This document shows positions 3,128-25,701 of a stretch of DNA of 64,000 nucleotides, piece after piece; position 1 is the stretch's first letter; every line of letters begins with the position of its first letter. Both the position numbers and the translations under genes were made by a program. Under the pieces are notes generated by a model. The model had not been told where the DNA came from. It ran no database searches and saw only the letters and a list, made by a program, of their open reading frames with translations. The DNA is from Escherichia phage vB_EcoM_PTE-Eco09. The stretch is taken from the sequence record PQ306574.1. One strand, written 5' to 3'.

Positions 3128-4897
3128 TTATACCGGAGAAATCCCAAAGAGGAACTCTTTAATTTGTACTGGCTGTGCTACTGCTTCGGCAGATACACCC
3201 TTAATACGGATGTTAATCTGATCGCCCTTTTCAATATTTAGGAAAGCACTGGTAGAATAGCTGATCAATTCGTCTGTGCCGTAATGACCATTTTTCGCTT
3301 CATGTACCATCTGTCCATTTTTGAAAATCGCAACAATGAATGTTGCATTATGTTGAGCTTGTACAGCACAACGGAATACACAACGGAATAAACCTTTGTC
3401 CTGAACGGTAATAACAGATTCACTTTTCACCATTTGACGCGCATTAACTTCTTCCGCCATGTCGTTAAGCGGAATCTGTTTATAAACATCCTGTTCGTCC
3501 AGTTCAACCGTAATATCTGCGGTATTTTTAAATGCTCCAGCAGCATATGCAACTTGCACCCATTCTCCGCGCTTACGCAGATAATGGAAACCGTCATCAG
3601 GTACATCATCTACTTTGTTTCCGTTAGATGTTTGTAGCTCTTTGACGATTTTAATCACGCCTTTCTGAGTAAATGGATCTTCTGAACCATCATCGCCATA
3701 GATATCACTTGATAGTTTAATAACGCCAGCGGTCAAACCTGATTCGCGATCACCTACAATCTGTTCCATGTCCTGTACGCTTGCTTCTAACCGACCCTGA
3801 GTGTTTTCTACAACTTTAATACGTCCGGCTAGAGTATGTCGATCGCTGTCAGTGCCAATCTCATTGGAAAGTCGAACAACTTCACCGCGCAAACCGTCAG
3901 CACCGCTTACACCAACAACCTGTTTAAGATCTAAAAATTCTCGCTCTGTGTTGGTTAATCGATAATCAATGCTTCCGGCCGATTGAGGCGTTCCGATCTT
4001 ATTCTCGACAGCCAGAAGACGAGGACGAATACCGGAATCTACACCATTAACATCATTGTTTAGACGTTCATAATTAGTTCCCAGCGTAGTGACTTTAGTC
4101 CCGATATCAGGGATTGAATCAAACAAAATTGCTTTCTTGACTTCTAGAACTTCGTTTGATAAGTTAGCAATGTTTCTTGCGTTGGTGCGGAGACGAACAT
4201 ACACATTTTCTTGTGTTGCAAGAGACGTGTCGCCGATCTCACTGCGCATTTTGTTAACTTGTTTTGTTAACTCGCCTACGTCAGAATCTTGCCAGTCGTT
4301 TTCAAGCTGAATGATTCGGCGACCGTGGTCATTTAATGCTGCGGTATTCTGAATAACTCGGTATTTGATGCCAGAACCGGAACTGCCAGCATCAGGGGAA
4401 CCATTGATATTAAAGTTAGGATAAGAACCCATTTCTTGTTTGATGAAAGAAATGTCATCATAGATTGTTCTTGTGCTAGGATCGGCAGCGGGGCGATCAC
4501 CAATCTTGATGTTAAGTTCTGATACAGCGTCTACCGTTGTTTGTAGAGTTCTTGCTGTTTCTCCTAAGTTATCTTCGACGGATTCAACTTTTGCGACAGT
4601 CTGGTTAACCACATCAATGATACTTCCGTCAGAAATTACCCCTAAAGTTGTTTTAATATCGTTAACCGCCGTTACAACCTCGTTAACTTTAGCGACGGTT
4701 GATTTTGCGTTTTCGTTTACGCGTGCAACGTTTTCTTGAATTGCAACCGGGGCGCGGTTAAGCGTCCCGTCATTGCCAGTCTGTGTCGTTGCTGCGCTTA
4801 AACATTCGCCATTCTTGATCCAGTTAATACGGTGCTGTCCTTCGCTTGGTACACCGTCAACATGTGGGATCTCGTGGATGTTTAATTGTTCAATCAT
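3128..4897 (-). CDS. wac: Fibritin (whisker antigen control) with extra C-terminal domain
   Basis: N-terminus (HVDGVPSEGQHRINWIKNGE) matches T4 fibritin (LPFVDGPPAEGQSRISWIKNGE); long coiled-coil region; foldon-like GFHYLRKRGEWVQV followed by about 130 extra residues. Confidence 0.8.
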   Translation of the reverse strand: MIEQLNIHEIPHVDGVPSEGQHRINWIKNGECLSAATTQTGNDGTLNRAPVAIQENVARVNENAKSTVAKVNEVVTAVNDIKTTLGVISDGSIIDVVNQTVAKVESVEDNLGETARTLQTTVDAVSELNIKIGDRPAADPSTRTIYDDISFIKQEMGSYPNFNINGSPDAGSSGSGIKYRVIQNTAALNDHGRRIIQLENDWQDSDVGELTKQVNKMRSEIGDTSLATQENVYVRLRTNARNIANLSNEVLEVKKAILFDSIPDIGTKVTTLGTNYERLNNDVNGVDSGIRPRLLAVENKIGTPQSAGSIDYRLTNTEREFLDLKQVVGVSGADGLRGEVVRLSNEIGTDSDRHTLAGRIKVVENTQGRLEASVQDMEQIVGDRESGLTAGVIKLSSDIYGDDGSEDPFTQKGVIKIVKELQTSNGNKVDDVPDDGFHYLRKRGEWVQVAYAAGAFKNTADITVELDEQDVYKQIPLNDMAEEVNARQMVKSESVITVQDKGLFRCVFRCAVQAQHNATFIVAIFKNGQMVHEAKNGHYGTDELISYSTSAFLNIEKGDQINIRIKGVSAEAVAQPVQIKEFLFGISPV

Positions 4898-19859: not shown

Positions 19860-20414
19860 TTACACATCAGCCTTTTCCATTTCTCGAATGAATGCGTTAA
19901 TAAATTGTTTAATTTGTGTAGGATCTATGATCTTGATCTTGCGTCGTTCCTCATTACGGAGGATCGCATCTTCCAGTGTGTCTACTGCCGATAGTGCACC
20001 TTGAAACTGCAAATGACGATGATGAATATCCCCTTTATCATACCAATTGCTTGATCCTTTCGGATATTCGGTAAGATTCCAATACTTGTTTCCGTCAATA
20101 TCAACGTGGTATAATACTTGATTTCCTCCTACATTTGCATATCGCTGTTCGGCTGATTCATATGCTGTCTCTTGATCGGTGATCCAGTCATGGAATGGAT
20201 CGTATACGTCATTAATCATCAGCAAGATCCAGTAAAGTTGTTGGTTTCCGTATACTTCATATGCAACTTGTTCCGGTCGTGGACTACCTTGAATGTAATA
20301 TGTTTGTATGTTATAATCAGAAATTATTGCGTTGAAATATGCGCGGTAATTGCGCACAATGTCAGTAATCATCTTGCCGTTGTATTCAATGGCAGGGAAG
20401 AAAGAAAAGAGCAT
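19860..20414 (-). CDS. 53: Baseplate wedge protein (T4 gp53-like)
   Basis: 184 aa; YYIQGSPRPE..NQQLYWILLMINDVYDP resembles T4 gp53 YYIKGSPRPE..NPQLYWVLLMCNDNYDP. Confidence 0.85.
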   Translation of the reverse strand: MLFSFFPAIEYNGKMITDIVRNYRAYFNAIISDYNIQTYYIQGSPRPEQVAYEVYGNQQLYWILLMINDVYDPFHDWITDQETAYESAEQRYANVGGNQVLYHVDIDGNKYWNLTEYPKGSSNWYDKGDIHHRHLQFQGALSAVDTLEDAILRNEERRKIKIIDPTQIKQFINAFIREMEKADV

Positions 20415-20446
20415 TTTAGCACCCTCAATTGATAAATAGTATTATG

Positions 20447-20454
20447 TATTTATA
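20447..20454 (-). promoter_or_regulatory. T4-type late promoter motif TATAAATA upstream of gp53
   Basis: Plus strand TATTTATA about 33 nt upstream of the gp53 ATG, inside the inverted repeat GCACCCT..AGGGTGC (20419-20465). Confidence 0.55.
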
Positions 20455-20469
20455 ATAAAGGGTGCTAAA

Positions 20470-21165
20470 ATGGACTATCAAAAACAATATGAACGATTAA
20501 TTGAACGCGCAAAGCATAGAACGCTTGAAGGATATAAAGAAAAACATCATATTATTCCTCGTTGTATGGGAGGCGATGATAGTCCAGAAAATATAGTTGA
20601 GTTAACGGGGTCTGAACATTTTGTTGCTCATCAACTTTTAGCAAAAATGCATCCAACACATCACGGAATTGTACATGCGGCGAAAATATTGATGGGGTCT
20701 ACCAACTATAACAATAAACAATTTGAGTGGGTAAGAAAACTTGCGGTTGAGACTTCAAGAAAATTTCATACAGGAAGAAAAAGATCCGAAGAGACTAGAC
20801 GCAGAATATCAGAAGCAACTAAAGGAAAGAGAAAAGGAATTAAATTATCTGAGGAACATCGACAGAAATTATCTGCTTCATTAAAAGGTAGAGTGTTTAC
20901 AGAAGAACATAAAAGAAATATTGCGTCAAGAGAAATTACACAAGAATGGAGAGACAACATCTCTAAAGCGGGTAAGGGTAGAAAGTTGTCACAAGAAAAC
21001 GTAGAGAAATGGAAACGTATTCATAACACGCCAGAAATGAAACAAAAATATAGTGAATTGTCAAAGTCTCGTCCGTATTTCACCTGTCCTCATTGTGGAA
21101 AAACAGCCAATCAGGGAAATTATGTTAGATGGCATGGTGACAACTGCAAGAAGAAGGTGGTATAA
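20470..21165 (+). CDS. HNH homing endonuclease with NUMOD3-like repeats
   Basis: HHIIPRCMGG..N..EL..EH HNH motif, then repeated basic S/T-E-E-x-R-x-K motifs (GRKRSEETRRRISEATKG, KLSEEHRQKLSASLKG); inserted upstream of gp4. Confidence 0.8.
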   Translation: MDYQKQYERLIERAKHRTLEGYKEKHHIIPRCMGGDDSPENIVELTGSEHFVAHQLLAKMHPTHHGIVHAAKILMGSTNYNNKQFEWVRKLAVETSRKFHTGRKRSEETRRRISEATKGKRKGIKLSEEHRQKLSASLKGRVFTEEHKRNIASREITQEWRDNISKAGKGRKLSQENVEKWKRIHNTPEMKQKYSELSKSRPYFTCPHCGKTANQGNYVRWHGDNCKKKVV

Positions 21166-21638
21166 TGGGTAATTGCAACACATATAGGGGTAAATATAGA
21201 CCTGAAAACCCGGAGAAGTATAAAGGCGACCTGAAAAAAATCGTCTACAGGTCAAGTTGGGAATTACATATAATGAAATTTTTAGACCGCAATCCTAGAG
21301 TTGCAAAATGGGGATCTGAGACCGTAGTAATTCCTTATGAGTCATCAACAGACGGAAAAAGACACAGATACTTTATGGATTTTTACGTTAAGTTTGATGA
21401 TGGCAAGGAGCATTTATGGGAAGTTAAACCAGCTAAAGAGACAAGGCCACCGGAAAAGCCAAAAAGAATGACCGCAAAGACAAAGCAACGATATATGCAT
21501 GAAGTGTGGACGTACACAAAAAATACTGAAAAATGGTTAGCTGCCGTGAAATTATGCCAAAAGCATAACATGGAGTTTAAGATCATCACCGAACATGCAT
21601 TAAAGAAAGTGTTTGGCTTTAAAGGGCTTAACAAATAG
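21165..21638 (+). CDS. 4: Head completion protein (gp4-like), PD-(D/E)xK-like motif
   Basis: 157 aa (T4 gp4 about 150 aa); D..E.K motif (MDFYVKF..EHLWEVKP); position before gp2. Confidence 0.55.
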   Translation: MGNCNTYRGKYRPENPEKYKGDLKKIVYRSSWELHIMKFLDRNPRVAKWGSETVVIPYESSTDGKRHRYFMDFYVKFDDGKEHLWEVKPAKETRPPEKPKRMTAKTKQRYMHEVWTYTKNTEKWLAAVKLCQKHNMEFKIITEHALKKVFGFKGLNK

Positions 21639-21649
21639 AGGATAATATT

Positions 21650-22471
21650 ATGAGCGTATTTGAAATAATCACAGAAGACGAAAAGCCGTCTCCCCAAAAA
21701 CGAAAGTCTAAACAGTGGGTCGAATTGGGTGTAGAATTTGCGAAAGCAAAAGCCAAAGGAATGACAGCTAAAGCATTTGCAGATTCTAAGGGAATAGCCT
21801 ATGCGACTTTCACTAAAAGTATGTCTCGTTATGCAAGCGAAATTAAAACAGCAATAGAAGTTGAAAAACTAAAAGGGAAAGGCGCAAAGGGTCTCAATAA
21901 GCAGCAACGCGCAATGATGATGATTAATGATTTTCGTGCGTCTATGCGTGCTGTATCAAAGAGTCGTCCTAAAGAAAAATCACAGGAGTGGTTTATGAAG
22001 ACCATCAAGGATGGTGTAAAAGGTCATCAGGTAGTAAAACCACAAGTGGGACGGATCTATACTTATGCGTATAACCCAAAATATCGGGATTCTTTGCCAT
22101 TCTTTGACCGATACCCCTTGATTATCTGTCTAGGATTTGGTACATCTAAAGCGGGAAACGAGATTATGCTAGGTTTGAACTTGCACTATGCGCCACCTAA
22201 AGCTCGCCAGCAGTTCTTAGAAGCGTTGTTGCGACAATACGCGAGTACACCTACTCTTAGTAATAAAACTCGTTTAAAAATTAAATGGAGTGATGTTAAA
22301 GGTATGAGAGGCGCAGACCACATGATCAAAGCATATTTGCCTGGACACATCCAAACAAAACTGATTGAGATCGCACCAAAAGATTGGAGCACGGTTGTGT
22401 ATCTTCCGACCTACCAGTTTATGAGCAAAGACAAGAAATATGATGCTCGTAAGGTGTGGAAATTGTTTTAA
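21650..22471 (+). CDS. 2: DNA end protector protein (gp2-like)
   Basis: 273 aa (T4 gp2 274 aa); basic N-terminal region; called on size and synteny only. Confidence 0.5.
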   Translation: MSVFEIITEDEKPSPQKRKSKQWVELGVEFAKAKAKGMTAKAFADSKGIAYATFTKSMSRYASEIKTAIEVEKLKGKGAKGLNKQQRAMMMINDFRASMRAVSKSRPKEKSQEWFMKTIKDGVKGHQVVKPQVGRIYTYAYNPKYRDSLPFFDRYPLIICLGFGTSKAGNEIMLGLNLHYAPPKARQQFLEALLRQYASTPTLSNKTRLKIKWSDVKGMRGADHMIKAYLPGHIQTKLIEIAPKDWSTVVYLPTYQFMSKDKKYDARKVWKLF

Positions 22472-22527
22472 TGATTATAAAAATAGCGCCGCTGGTGACG
22501 GCGCTTTAATTTACAGGATATAAAAAT

Positions 22528-23670
22528 ATGACTAAAGAAAGAAAACCTAATTCAGTTCCTAGACCGTTCGGTGTATATCTAGAGAAGGTAAAAGAACATA
22601 TCCCATGTGGTTATGAATGGTATGGTCTAGTCGGAGAATACACCAACGCAAAGGATACTAGATTTAAGTTAAAATGTGATAAAGGACATACGTCAACTAT
22701 ATTTAGTTTAGATACTCTTAGACTGGGTGTAAAATGTCATGAATGCACTGGTCGCTTACGCTGGACCAAAGAAAGAATAGATGATGCATTAAAGACAATA
22801 TGCGGAAAATACACATTGATCGATATTCCTAAAGGATATACAGGTCAAATGACAGAATTACTAATGCATTGTCCTGATTGCAACAAAAACTTTACTAAGA
22901 AATTTATATATCTTTATCAAGGTCATGGTTGTCTCTGCGTTAAGGGTAAACGCTGGAATAGCGAAGAGTTGCTAACAGAGATGAGGAATAACCAAAAAGA
23001 CCACGAAGTCATTGGCTATGTGTCTGATTATAAAGATTTTTATGAAAGAAATATCTTAGTTAAATGCCCTAATGGACATGAATATACTGCATCCGGTCAC
23101 TCGTTTTTAGTTAATGGATCTAGATGTAAACTATGTTCAGGTAAAAACAAGAAGTCAACTGAGCAAGTAGTAAAGGAAATAACAGATAAGGCGATTGATA
23201 AAGGTGATACATTTGTTGATTTTGTTGGCGGTGAGTATAGAGGAATGCTAAAAACAAAATTGGTAATGCGTTGTAGTAGCGGACATGAATTTACGCCAAA
23301 CTTAGGAGACTACGTATCAAAAAATAGCGGTTGCCCTATGTGTAGCAATCATGGATTTAAGAGGAATAAACCTGCATACATTTATGTACAAACTTTATAC
23401 AAAGAAGATGTTGCGGTTGCTATAAAATTTGGTATAACCAACAACAGATTAATAAAAAGAATACAAAACCAATCTTCAAAATCTATATTTCGTCATGAGT
23501 TGACATTTTATAAAAAATACGATAACGGTGATGATGCTCTTTCTATGGAATGTGCAATAAAGAAAAAGTATAAAGGTTTCTATGTTAGTAAAGAAGATAT
23601 GCCCGATGGATATACAGAAACGCTATCCATATCAGAGCTACAAAACGTCATTGATATGATCAATAGTTAA
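22528..23670 (+). CDS. Zinc-ribbon repeat protein with C-terminal GIY-YIG-like (T5orf172-type) domain
   Basis: Four CxxGHE[FY]..G..CxxC repeats; C-terminal KPAYIYVQ..IKFGIT..R..E resembles a GIY-YIG/T5orf172 fold; splits the gp2-gp3 pair. Confidence 0.5.
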   Translation: MTKERKPNSVPRPFGVYLEKVKEHIPCGYEWYGLVGEYTNAKDTRFKLKCDKGHTSTIFSLDTLRLGVKCHECTGRLRWTKERIDDALKTICGKYTLIDIPKGYTGQMTELLMHCPDCNKNFTKKFIYLYQGHGCLCVKGKRWNSEELLTEMRNNQKDHEVIGYVSDYKDFYERNILVKCPNGHEYTASGHSFLVNGSRCKLCSGKNKKSTEQVVKEITDKAIDKGDTFVDFVGGEYRGMLKTKLVMRCSSGHEFTPNLGDYVSKNSGCPMCSNHGFKRNKPAYIYVQTLYKEDVAVAIKFGITNNRLIKRIQNQSSKSIFRHELTFYKKYDNGDDALSMECAIKKKYKGFYVSKEDMPDGYTETLSISELQNVIDMINS

Positions 23671-23674
23671 GATT

Positions 23675-23700
23675 AAGCCCGTCAATGACGGGCTTTTTTT
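23675..23700 (+). terminator. Rho-independent terminator
   Basis: AAGCCCGTCAATGACGGGCTT hairpin followed by TTTTTTT. Confidence 0.6.
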
Positions 23701-23701
23701 A

Positions 23702-23956
23702 TTATAGATCGATAGCATGAGCATAACCATGTAAGAAGTCTTTTAATTCTTCCTTATTGGTAACACGCTGTAAAATCTCTAATGCCTTGTCGCGATCACG
23801 TAATGCACCTGAAAGGGATTTTATTTGATCATCCCTTTCTGCAATCTGCTTAAGCAGATCTGTATTGCATTTAGACAAATAGAGAACTTCACCCCGCAAT
23901 GTTGCTAATTCGTTATCCAGACGATCATAGAGTTTTAACAAAATGTCTTCTGTCAT
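23702..23956 (-). CDS. Hypothetical coiled-coil protein, antisense to the surrounding plus-strand genes
   Basis: 84-aa ORF, ATG with GAGGA RBS; heptad-like Leu pattern; lone minus-strand gene in a plus block. Confidence 0.35.
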   Translation of the reverse strand: MTEDILLKLYDRLDNELATLRGEVLYLSKCNTDLLKQIAERDDQIKSLSGALRDRDKALEILQRVTNKEELKDFLHGYAHAIDL

Positions 23957-24145
23957 AAGAAGTCCTCGTATAGTACCCGTTTTATTTATTACTGTATAAA
24001 AATATAGTTATTGGTTAAAACATAACCAAAACGAAGAAAGATCTTTAGAATAATAAAAATTTGTTTCGGTTAAAAAGTAGTCAGTGCCTACGGCACGTCG
24101 CAAAGCGACAATTGTTAATAAATATTTTCATTTGAGGAATCAGTA

Positions 24146-24736
24146 ATGTCTAATCTCTTTAACTATGCTAACCCTAGCAACTGGCAGATTGCCATTCCAG
24201 ATGGTCAACTAACAAAAGGCTTTACTTTAAACTGTCAAGGTGTTACACTTCCGGCTATAACCATTCCACCGACTAAGCAAGTTGCTGGTCAATATGGTTT
24301 GGCGGTCGCTGATTATCCGTCTAGTCATGTGGAGTTTGACCCGTTGGTAGTCCGGTTTATCGTTGATGAGCATTTGGAAAGCTATCTAAACCTTTACACA
24401 TGGATGCTTTCTATAGTAGACTACAATAACGGTAACTCCACAGCGTGGAAGGATTCAATGCCGGAAGCCGTTCAAGTTCACATGATGGACAACGAACGAC
24501 GTAACATTGTGTGCACTTTTAACTTTTATGGTTGTTGGTGTTCACAATTGGGGGAACTTGAGTTAACATACACCGATGATATGCATGAATCTCTGGTGTG
24601 TACTGCAATTCTTCCCTTTAAAACAATGAGCATTGAACGTGATGGTCAACTGATCGTTCCTCGCCCAGCAATTCAGGCGGCGGATCGTCAGAGGGTGGAA
24701 GGTATTAAAGCTATGCACCCTGCTTTTAGAAAGTAA
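24146..24736 (+). CDS. 3: Tail completion / sheath stabilizer (gp3-like)
   Basis: 196 aa; GAGGA RBS; position between gp2 and gp1 as in the T4 order 4-2-3-1. Confidence 0.5.
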   Translation: MSNLFNYANPSNWQIAIPDGQLTKGFTLNCQGVTLPAITIPPTKQVAGQYGLAVADYPSSHVEFDPLVVRFIVDEHLESYLNLYTWMLSIVDYNNGNSTAWKDSMPEAVQVHMMDNERRNIVCTFNFYGCWCSQLGELELTYTDDMHESLVCTAILPFKTMSIERDGQLIVPRPAIQAADRQRVEGIKAMHPAFRK

Positions 24737-24751
24737 TAAGAGGCTTATATA

Positions 24752-25408
24752 ATGAAATTGATTGCACTTTGTGGTAAAAAGCGAGTAGGAAAAGACACTG
24801 CCGCGTTAATCATTGATGGACATAGTTATCAACTGGCAGCACCGATCAAAGAAATATTGTGCGAATGTCAACCAGACTTAGGTCTGACTTATCTTGACTT
24901 TGACGGGTTAGGGCGTGACAGAGAAGCCGATCTAGGTATTGATACCTATACCGCGCATAAGTGGTTTATTCAGTGTCTGCTTATGCTAGATTCGAAGTAT
25001 GGCGGTAGTTCCTTTACTTGTGATCGTCTGGCTGAGATTTACAAGGTCGTTAATGAGATTGGCGAAAAACATAATAACGTCTGGTCTATTCGTCTCATGT
25101 TAACCACTCTCGGTACTGATATAATGGTTAACTTGATCAATCCGCTTTATTGGTGTAATCTCTTCGTGAATGAGTTTATGAAGCGAAAAAATGAAGAAGG
25201 GTATTTTGTAGTGGTTGATGTGCGTCAGCCTATTGAAATTGCTCTTATGCGTGCTATGGGTGCTAAGGTGTTGCATATTCAGCGTGATACTGGTATTGTA
25301 TCGACTCACTCCACCGAAAAAGGAATTTTGCCTATTGACGGTGAAACCATTATCATAAATAATGGTACATTAGAAGAATTTGAAAGCGCGATTCTCGCGA
25401 ACATTTAA
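24752..25408 (+). CDS. 1: Deoxynucleoside monophosphate kinase (T4 gp1-like)
   Basis: MKLIALCGKKRVGKDT P-loop; LAAPIKE, TTLGTDIMVN, YWCNLF, AMGAKVLHI resemble T4 gp1. Confidence 0.85.
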   Translation: MKLIALCGKKRVGKDTAALIIDGHSYQLAAPIKEILCECQPDLGLTYLDFDGLGRDREADLGIDTYTAHKWFIQCLLMLDSKYGGSSFTCDRLAEIYKVVNEIGEKHNNVWSIRLMLTTLGTDIMVNLINPLYWCNLFVNEFMKRKNEEGYFVVVDVRQPIEIALMRAMGAKVLHIQRDTGIVSTHSTEKGILPIDGETIIINNGTLEEFESAILANI

Positions 25409-25440
25409 TAAAAAGTTATCAACAAATAGGAGATGTGAAT

Positions 25441-25701
25441 ATGTCCAATCAGCATGAACAAATGATTAATGTCCTGAAAGTACGTCTGTTTGACACTCAA
25501 GAAAAGGCCGCATTCTTAGAAGGCCAACTGAAAGATCGTGAGCGTGTATTGATGGAACTGGTACGCATTCTGGGTATTCAGCCAGACGAAAACGGGACTG
25601 TTTCCCTTGATGCTATTGTCGAAGAAGTGAAAGCACTTCTCCCTAAAGACGAAGCAGCGGAAGACGCAGAAGAGGAAGTAGAACTGATCACGGAGGCTTG
25701 A
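25441..25701 (+). CDS. 57A: Tail fiber assembly chaperone (gp57A-like)
   Basis: 86 aa, coiled-coil with acidic C-terminus; the track start is GTG, moved to ATG 25441 with TAGGAGA RBS; position after gp1. Confidence 0.5.
   Translation: MSNQHEQMINVLKVRLFDTQEKAAFLEGQLKDRERVLMELVRILGIQPDENGTVSLDAIVEEVKALLPKDEAAEDAEEEVELITEA

Follow-up and report, generated by a model that had tools for sequence, protein, structure and literature searches.

A probable free-standing homing endonuclease gene of the CapR-zinc-finger/T5orf172 family downstream of gene 2 in a Krischvirus genome

The question raised by this locus is what a 380-amino-acid open reading frame (ORF) with a nuclease-like C-terminus is doing between genes 2 and 3 of a T4-type phage, and how it came to be there. 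The window, i.e. the whole 64-kb stretch of DNA that was analyzed, is part of the genome of Escherichia phage vB_EcoM_PTE-Eco09 (PQ306574.1), a Krischvirus (RB49/JSE-like, T4-type coliphage). The region 20400-25500 matched 63 phage records, and almost every one of these bears the name of an Escherichia, Shigella or Enterobacteria phage. AV108, G37-3 and JSE matched best, with identities of 99.2-99.4%. The ORF listing confirmed the predicted 380-aa ORF at 22528-23670 on the plus strand. It aligned to PHROG 681 (“endonuclease”) over aa 22-379 with an E value of 2e-81. An AGGA ribosome-binding site was read from the sequence at 22515-22518, 9 nt 5' of the ATG. The ORF is referred to here as HEG-A (homing endonuclease gene) and the gene which takes its place in other phages as HEG-B; both names were coined in this analysis. 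The original prediction that the order gp4-gp2-gp3-gp1 is broken by this ORF agrees with the Pfam and PHROG matches and with the annotation of JSE and RB49, which placed gp4 at 21165-21638, gp2 at 21650-22471, gp3 at 24146-24736 and gp1 at 24752-25408, all on the plus strand. Genes for gp5, a gp5.1-like protein and gp53 lie near the ORF on the minus strand.

A second ORF, overlooked in the original prediction, also lies between genes 2 and 3. It is antisense (23702-23956, minus strand), encodes a coiled-coil-like product of 84 aa (PHROG 17832, E=2e-57) and was found in every Krischvirus examined. It is located outside the mobile cassette described below. The head completion protein gp4 (21165-21638) matched the Pfam family Tn7_TnsA-like_N, which has an endonuclease-like fold, with an E value of 4e-21. 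Gene 2 of the JSE record NC_012740 is frameshifted near its 5' end compared to the window and RB49 (locus approximately 1056-1131) and its annotated start has been moved to locus position 1132, possibly as the result of a sequencing error in that record. No T4 late promoter consensus was found upstream of HEG-A. The sequence TATAAAAATA is an imperfect match to the consensus TATAAATA, being one base longer, and as this was all that was present upstream no late promoter is claimed for HEG-A. TATAAAAATA occurs at 22475-22484 and 22518-22527, flanking the internal hairpin of the cassette. A sigma-70 scan directly upstream of HEG-A yielded nothing convincing. A tblastn search for paralogues of HEG-A across the whole 64-kb window returned HEG-A alone.

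HEG-A contains four zinc modules of approximately 50 residues each, which can be aligned to one another. Module 1 is encoded at 22603-22755 (aa 26-76; C50-x3-H54...C70-x2-C73; pLDDT about 86-88), module 2 at 22801-22947 (aa 92-140; C115-x2-C118...C135-x-C137), module 3 at 22993-23145 (aa 156-206; C180-x3-H184...C200-x2-C203) and module 4 at 23200-23352 (aa 225-275; C249-x3-H253...C269-x2-C272), all on the plus strand. Pfam CapR (PF21817) aligned to four stretches of the protein (E=6e-13; 49.1 bits against a cut-off of 24.2), the best of them at aa 219-273 in module 4. The treble-clef zinc finger family DUF4379 matched with an E value of 3e-8, with module 3 aligned at aa 178-206. The repeats are therefore not a chance resemblance. 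A CapR domain was defined by a Pfam score above the cut-off together with paired Cys/His ligands approximately 15-26 residues apart, and HEG-A has both. Four copies of a CxxGHE[FY]..G..CxxC unit had been predicted. Four modules are present and three of them fit CxxGH[TE]...CxxC, but the second is a CxxC...CxC variant. This variant is the motif published for CapR (PMC8096241, PMC10448857). HEG-A was aligned with 28 homologues from a large protein collection (29 proteins in total), and C180, C200 and C203 of module 3 and C249, C269 and C272 of module 4 were invariant. The full-length AlphaFold model of HEG-A had a mean pLDDT of 84 with well folded modules and a pTM of 0.38, the mutual orientation of the modules not being fixed. 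Such a model agrees with the picture of “beads on a string”. A Foldseek search with it returned no match at E≤0.001, which is explained by the lack of a fixed arrangement between the modules and the nuclease domain.

The C-terminal domain (23368-23667, plus strand; aa 281-380) is of the T5orf172/GIY-YIG nuclease type. The string KPAYIYVQTLYKED..IKFGIT..R..E, on which the predicted resemblance to this fold was based, was found at aa 281-341. The motif series of the domain is YIY...KFGITN...R...E...GYTET. We take the closing G-x-T-E motif to be of the T5orf172 type. Pfam T5orf172 (PF10544) scored 17.2 bits (E=0.0075) with the full protein and 19.7 bits (E=0.0012) with the isolated domain, the cut-off being 20. 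MUG113, a family of the same GIY-YIG clan, scored 18.9 bits against a cut-off of 22.3 with the isolated domain (E=0.0023). At E≤0.01 MUG113 was matched by four of the 29 aligned proteins (best E value 3.7e-5) and T5orf172 likewise by four. The lack of any GIY-YIG or T5orf172 profile match had been named in advance as grounds for rejecting the assignment; a match does exist, but its score is just under the Pfam cut-off. The alignment showed a strongly conserved C-terminal domain attached to very variable zinc-finger regions. Invariant in all 29 proteins were Y286, K300-F-G-I-T-N305, R311, G334, E341, K345, K355 and G361-Y-T-E-T365. The order of these residues is that of the GIY-YIG motifs (Tyr motif, second motif, Arg, Glu), and on the basis of motif order Y286, R311 and E341 are probable counterparts of I-TevI Y6, R27 and E75. 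The resemblance to the GIY-YIG/T5orf172 fold is supported by the 19.7-bit profile match, just below the cut-off, and by the presence of Y286, K300-FGITN, R311 and E341. The second motif is KFG and not YIG, with Phe301 in place of the second Tyr throughout the family, and the active site is consequently non-canonical.

The AF2 model of the C-terminal domain alone had a pLDDT of 92. It contained the core of the GIY-YIG superfamily, a three-stranded beta sheet with flanking helices in the order beta-beta-alpha-beta-alpha. There were 104 structural matches to the domain in BFVD at E≤1e-3. Those with names were mostly “CapR homology domain-containing”, while one was named “Homing endonuclease” and one “GIY-YIG domain-containing”. 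PDB searches by sequence, using phmmer with the HEG-A protein and a profile search with the alignment, returned only noise (cutinase, cytochrome c). An NCBIfam scan of HEG-A gave no meaningful match. Many members of the family have very different zinc-finger regions and a nearly identical C-terminal half (HEIFYELTLQDGQKILELENKIKEAMKGKTSYISKEDMPDGYTETVAPSELSTIMYIVKSFEKELTA, located in the C-terminal ~70 residues of the alignment), which suggests that DNA-binding regions may have been shuffled recently onto one nuclease module. HEG-A carries a more diverged version of this half.

The occupancy of the site downstream of gene 2 was determined using a 300-bp probe across the empty gp2/terminator junction of RB49. 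This probe matched 58 phage records. The junction was empty and uninterrupted in 42 records, occupied by HEG-A in four and by HEG-B in 11. The remaining record, Sf20, starts at the junction and its state is not readable. Had the gene been conserved at this position in all relatives, the predicted mobility would have been called into question; 42 of the 58 records were empty instead. The HEG-A records are JSE (two records), G37-3 and AV108, i.e. four records from three phages, with proteins 99.7-100% identical by tblastn. All other phage matches to HEG-A by tblastn were below 60% identity, at about 25-32% among the matches listed. The matches listed included related Krischviruses in which the similarity lay at other genomic positions. 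HEG-B is a protein of 350 aa which is 27% identical to HEG-A and has three CapR stretches and a homologous C-terminal domain. It was present in FL37 (locus 1846-2898), FL38, pEJ01, ELT3, Cognac, Skers, G2248, ECD7 (two records) and phi1, as ORF130.1 (locus 923-1954; two records). The right junction is identical for the two genes. RB49-type sequence returns at probe position 148-152, and the gp2 stop ends at position 150. HEG-B overlaps the gene 2 stop, whereas HEG-A has its own upstream hairpin. The diverged part of gene 2 is limited to the last ~70 nt with HEG-B, compared to 476 nt with HEG-A. HEG-A is therefore patchily present at one defined site among close relatives, as a homing gene would be.

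This distribution bears on whether the function of HEG-A, as a nuclease or DNA-binding protein, could be something other than its own spread. Examples would be a CapR-like transcriptional repressor and an Odn-like weapon directed at rival phages or satellites. Odn, a T5orf172 nuclease of ICP1, targets a satellite origin. Such roles would have precedents, since CapR is a repressor that arose from a zinc-finger domain (PMC8096241), the dependence of a T5orf172 nuclease, presumably Odn, on a glutamate inferred to be catalytic has been shown, and I-TevI also works as a repressor (PMC10448857). They are nevertheless quite improbable for HEG-A. The occupancy is patchy, a second member of the same family alternates at the site and phages lacking HEG-A are viable, so that a conserved phage function is unlikely. 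In addition the nuclease domain of HEG-A has been kept whole, unlike that of CapR. PADLOC gave no match for the HEG-A ORF, and a reading of the gene as a defence system was dropped.

The junctions were then resolved from the sliding identity of the window against seven relatives together with lists of mismatches. HEG-A was found to be the right-hand part of a 1675-bp cassette (21996-23670) comprising a foreign 3' part of gene 2, a second terminator and HEG-A itself. Outside the cassette, identity to RB49-type genomes is 97-100%. The foreign part of gene 2 (21996-22471, plus strand; codons 116-273) differs from RB49 and MIZ6 at 137 of 465 aligned nt, a divergence of ~29% compared to 1-2% in the surrounding backbone. 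On its left side the tract begins abruptly: the last mismatches before 21996 are at 21883 and 21910, and from 21996 they recur every few bases. The tract alters 34 residues of gp2, all inside aa 116-273. It is identical to that of JSE over its 476 nt and differs from that of AV108 at one position. The closest other gene 2 allele (78.8% identity) was that of the more distantly related Krischvirus JK32, in which the site is empty, and thus the donor is absent from the phage collection. The tract is taken as a co-converted flank and, presumably, as a cleavage-immune allele. After the gene 2 stop there is an extra G+C-rich hairpin (AGCGCCGCTGGTGACGGCGCT, 22485-22505) which is terminator-like on both strands. 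It can be aligned with the native RB49 hairpin AAGCCCGTCAATGACGGGCTT and represents a duplicate, though diverged, gene 2 terminator; it is absent from the empty-site phages. The right edge of the cassette is the HEG-A stop codon. RB49-type sequence resumes directly after it and contains the native bidirectional terminator hairpin (23675-23695). The predicted invasion by a mobile element is supported by the comparison of the gp2-gp3 junction, which is empty in most relatives and into which a sharply bounded foreign flank arrives together with HEG-A. The carriers thus have a co-transferred flank and a diverged target region, as is characteristic of homing genes. The conversion is asymmetric, with 476 bp to the left and none to the right of HEG-A. 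The missing right flank is unusual for symmetric double-strand-break repair and counts against the homing reading of HEG-A.

The cassette differs from that of JSE at 3 of 1675 nt and from that of AV108 at 1 of 1675 nt. The flanking 3.6 kb differ at 44 and 36 positions respectively (1.0-1.2%; Fisher p=5e-5 and 2e-5). Between carriers, divergence is several-fold lower inside the cassette than in the flanks, and the spread of the cassette is therefore more recent than the divergence of the backbones. These figures also bear on the age of the gene. Homing endonuclease genes often decay after fixation, and HEG-A could have arrived by homing, no longer cut and be on its way to loss. The non-canonical KFG motif, the Pfam T5orf172 score below the cut-off and the presence of the gene in only three database phages would agree with an inactive relic. 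However, the frame is intact over 380 aa and every residue invariant among the 29 proteins has been kept. Copies 99.7-100% identical in different backbones, within a cassette far less diverged than the flanks, point to recent spread and not to long residence, and decay is considered an unlikely explanation.

HEG-A is not the only mobile gene in this block. The HNH gene predicted upstream of gp4 was located at 20470-21165 on the plus strand, between gp53 and gp4 (NUMOD3, E=7e-7; PHROG 655 “homing endonuclease”, E=3e-64). A sharply bounded tract of 107 bp in the 5' end of gp4 (21176-21282) is 63-70% identical to phages without the HNH gene. The gene and the gp4 tract are common to the window and MIZ6, which were aligned. 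Annotation and match length suggest that MIZ2, MIZ3, ELT4 and Brandy also carry the HNH gene. It is absent from RB49, JSE and AV108. The combination of the HNH gene and HEG-A seen in the window phage was found in none of the eleven related records whose region was examined. A third insertion site, corresponding to window position ~24113, is empty in the window and is occupied in AV108 (locus 3580-4113) and phiS (locus 2385-2918) by a 177-aa HNH_3-AP2 endonuclease between the small reverse ORF and gp3. With the sites of the HNH gene, HEG-A/HEG-B and the HNH_3-AP2 gene, the gp53-to-gp3 block is a hotspot in which genes have been inserted independently at three sites or more.

It could also be argued that HEG-A is a passenger of ordinary recombination, having come in with a segment of gene 2 from a distant relative by homologous exchange or by the shuffling of promoter/terminator cassettes. 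Recombination at promoter-stem-loop cassettes has reportedly been proposed for differences between phi1 and RB49 (PMC2839356, PMC4122927), and the HEG-A cassette does lie between two related hairpins. Against this, exactly one site is used by both HEG-A and HEG-B, distinct genes of a single endonuclease family, each with its own diverged gene 2 3' end, and the neighbouring HNH gene has the same flank signature. The location of nucleases at exchange boundaries is a prediction of endonuclease-driven conversion (PMC10448857). A passenger origin is accordingly regarded as very improbable. The reading preferred here, and a highly probable one, is that HEG-A is a free-standing homing endonuclease gene of the CapR-zinc-finger/T5orf172 family, a branch of the GIY-YIG superfamily, with cleavage and homing as its predicted activities.

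The region recognized by such an endonuclease may be narrowed using the alleles of gene 2. The HEG-B carriers are identical to RB49 through gene 2 up to the last ~70 nt, where a dense cluster of mostly synonymous substitutions is found. MIZ4 and kvi have an empty site, yet they carry most of the HEG-B substitution cluster in the last ~65 nt of gene 2. This would be expected if HEG-B had been lost from their allele or if recombination had taken place close to it, and such an allele would presumably be resistant to cleavage. The gene 2 allele of the window is also heavily substituted in its last ~70 nt. As this end of the gene is substituted with HEG-B, in MIZ4 and kvi and in the window, we infer that recognition and cleavage in empty-site genomes take place in the final ~70 nt of gene 2, in the terminator next to it, or in both. 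For HEG-A the chances that this is correct are about even, as the site cannot be pinned down within a diverged tract of 476 bp.

By analogy with T4 SegF and SegG, intron-less homing is the best-supported route for HEG-A. When a Krischvirus without HEG-A infects the same cell as a carrier, the zinc modules, four in tandem, would attach to a long asymmetric site in its genome, at the 3' end of gene 2 or close to it. The C-terminal GIY-YIG-type domain would then cut close to the bound site. The break would be mended by T4-type recombination with the carrier genome as template, and this repair would copy HEG-A and an adjacent donor flank of variable length. The diverged gene 2 3' end of the carrier itself would presumably escape cutting. 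The window would contain the product of such an event, with the cassette set in an RB49-like backbone.

One site in near-identical coliphages was thus found in four states: empty, with HEG-A, with HEG-B, and empty with the HEG-B flank. The site downstream of gene 2 may, as a tentative extension, be a contested one. HEG-A and HEG-B would each cut the gene 2 3' allele of the other or that of the empty site, leading to repeated replacement of the C-terminal half of gp2, which is an essential protein of the virion, and HEG-less “immune” alleles such as those of MIZ4 and kvi would be a third player. If this were so, crosses on homing and target recognition in the multi-zinc-finger T5orf172 family would have an E. 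coli/T4-type model. The edges of the cassette can be read to the nucleotide, which makes the RB49/JSE group convenient for tests of T5orf172 homing. The group may also be of use for studying recognition by zinc modules and the reshuffling of essential genes such as gene 2. HEG-A is a well-resolved natural example, clean but ordinary. It does not represent a new kind of system, as the family and its architecture are known from the literature and the gene entered GenBank with the sequence of JSE. The RefSeq label of the JSE copy is already “endonuclease”. A 2010 review of T4 genomes counted seven putative homing endonuclease genes in JSE, which may or may not include HEG-A. The phi1/RB49 comparison paper does not refer to ORF130.1 by name.

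The family itself was described in other phages. Netter et al. (2021) showed a resemblance of CapR, a satellite repressor, to the N-terminal domains of those ICP1 proteins which have a conserved C-terminal T5orf172 domain, and proposed these proteins as homing endonucleases (PMC8096241). Barth, Dunham and Seed (2023) surveyed 229 T5orf172 genes, 87% of which had at least one zinc finger of the CapR, DUF723 or DUF4379 type, often repeated (PMC10448857). The genes adjoin essential genes at boundaries of genetic exchange, and their homing was described by the authors as largely a bioinformatic inference so far (PMC10448857). The phages at the centre of that survey were ICP1, the Plateaulakeviruses and the T5-like and VpaJT-like phages. 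Its main text makes no mention of RB49, JSE or Krischvirus, and T4 is stated to lack T5orf172 genes (PMC10448857). The CapR/T5orf172 proteins of ICP1 and other phages are built like HEG-A, with one to several N-terminal CapR, DUF723 or DUF4379 modules as beads on a string followed by a C-terminal T5orf172 domain. Like their genes, HEG-A stands beside essential genes at an exchange boundary and combines modular, variable DNA-binding regions with a conserved nuclease domain. HEG-A differs from the ICP1-type systems in its host lineage, a T4-type coliphage (Krischvirus), and in that natural isolates directly show the insertion site, the cassette edges, the alternative occupant and the empty-but-marked allele.

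The order of the domains had been described as inverted in the original prediction. It is indeed the reverse of that in I-TevI and the Seg proteins, but it is the usual one for T5orf172 homing endonucleases (PMC8096241, PMC10448857). The homing endonucleases SegF, SegG and I-TevI of T-even phages share the GIY-YIG-superfamily catalytic fold with HEG-A, and the Seg endonucleases, in contrast to the intron-borne I-TevI, are likewise encoded by free-standing genes between conserved genes. For SegF and SegG intron-less homing is established, with co-conversion of flanking markers and localized marker exclusion (cited in PMC2993671, PMC10448857). In the Seg proteins and I-TevI the nuclease is N-terminal and the DNA-binding part, a helix-turn-helix (HTH) or NUMOD domain, is C-terminal; in HEG-A this order is reversed and binding is assigned to tandem zinc modules. 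The catalytic motifs of HEG-A (YIY/KFG...GYTE) are those of the T5orf172 type, unlike those of Seg and I-TevI.
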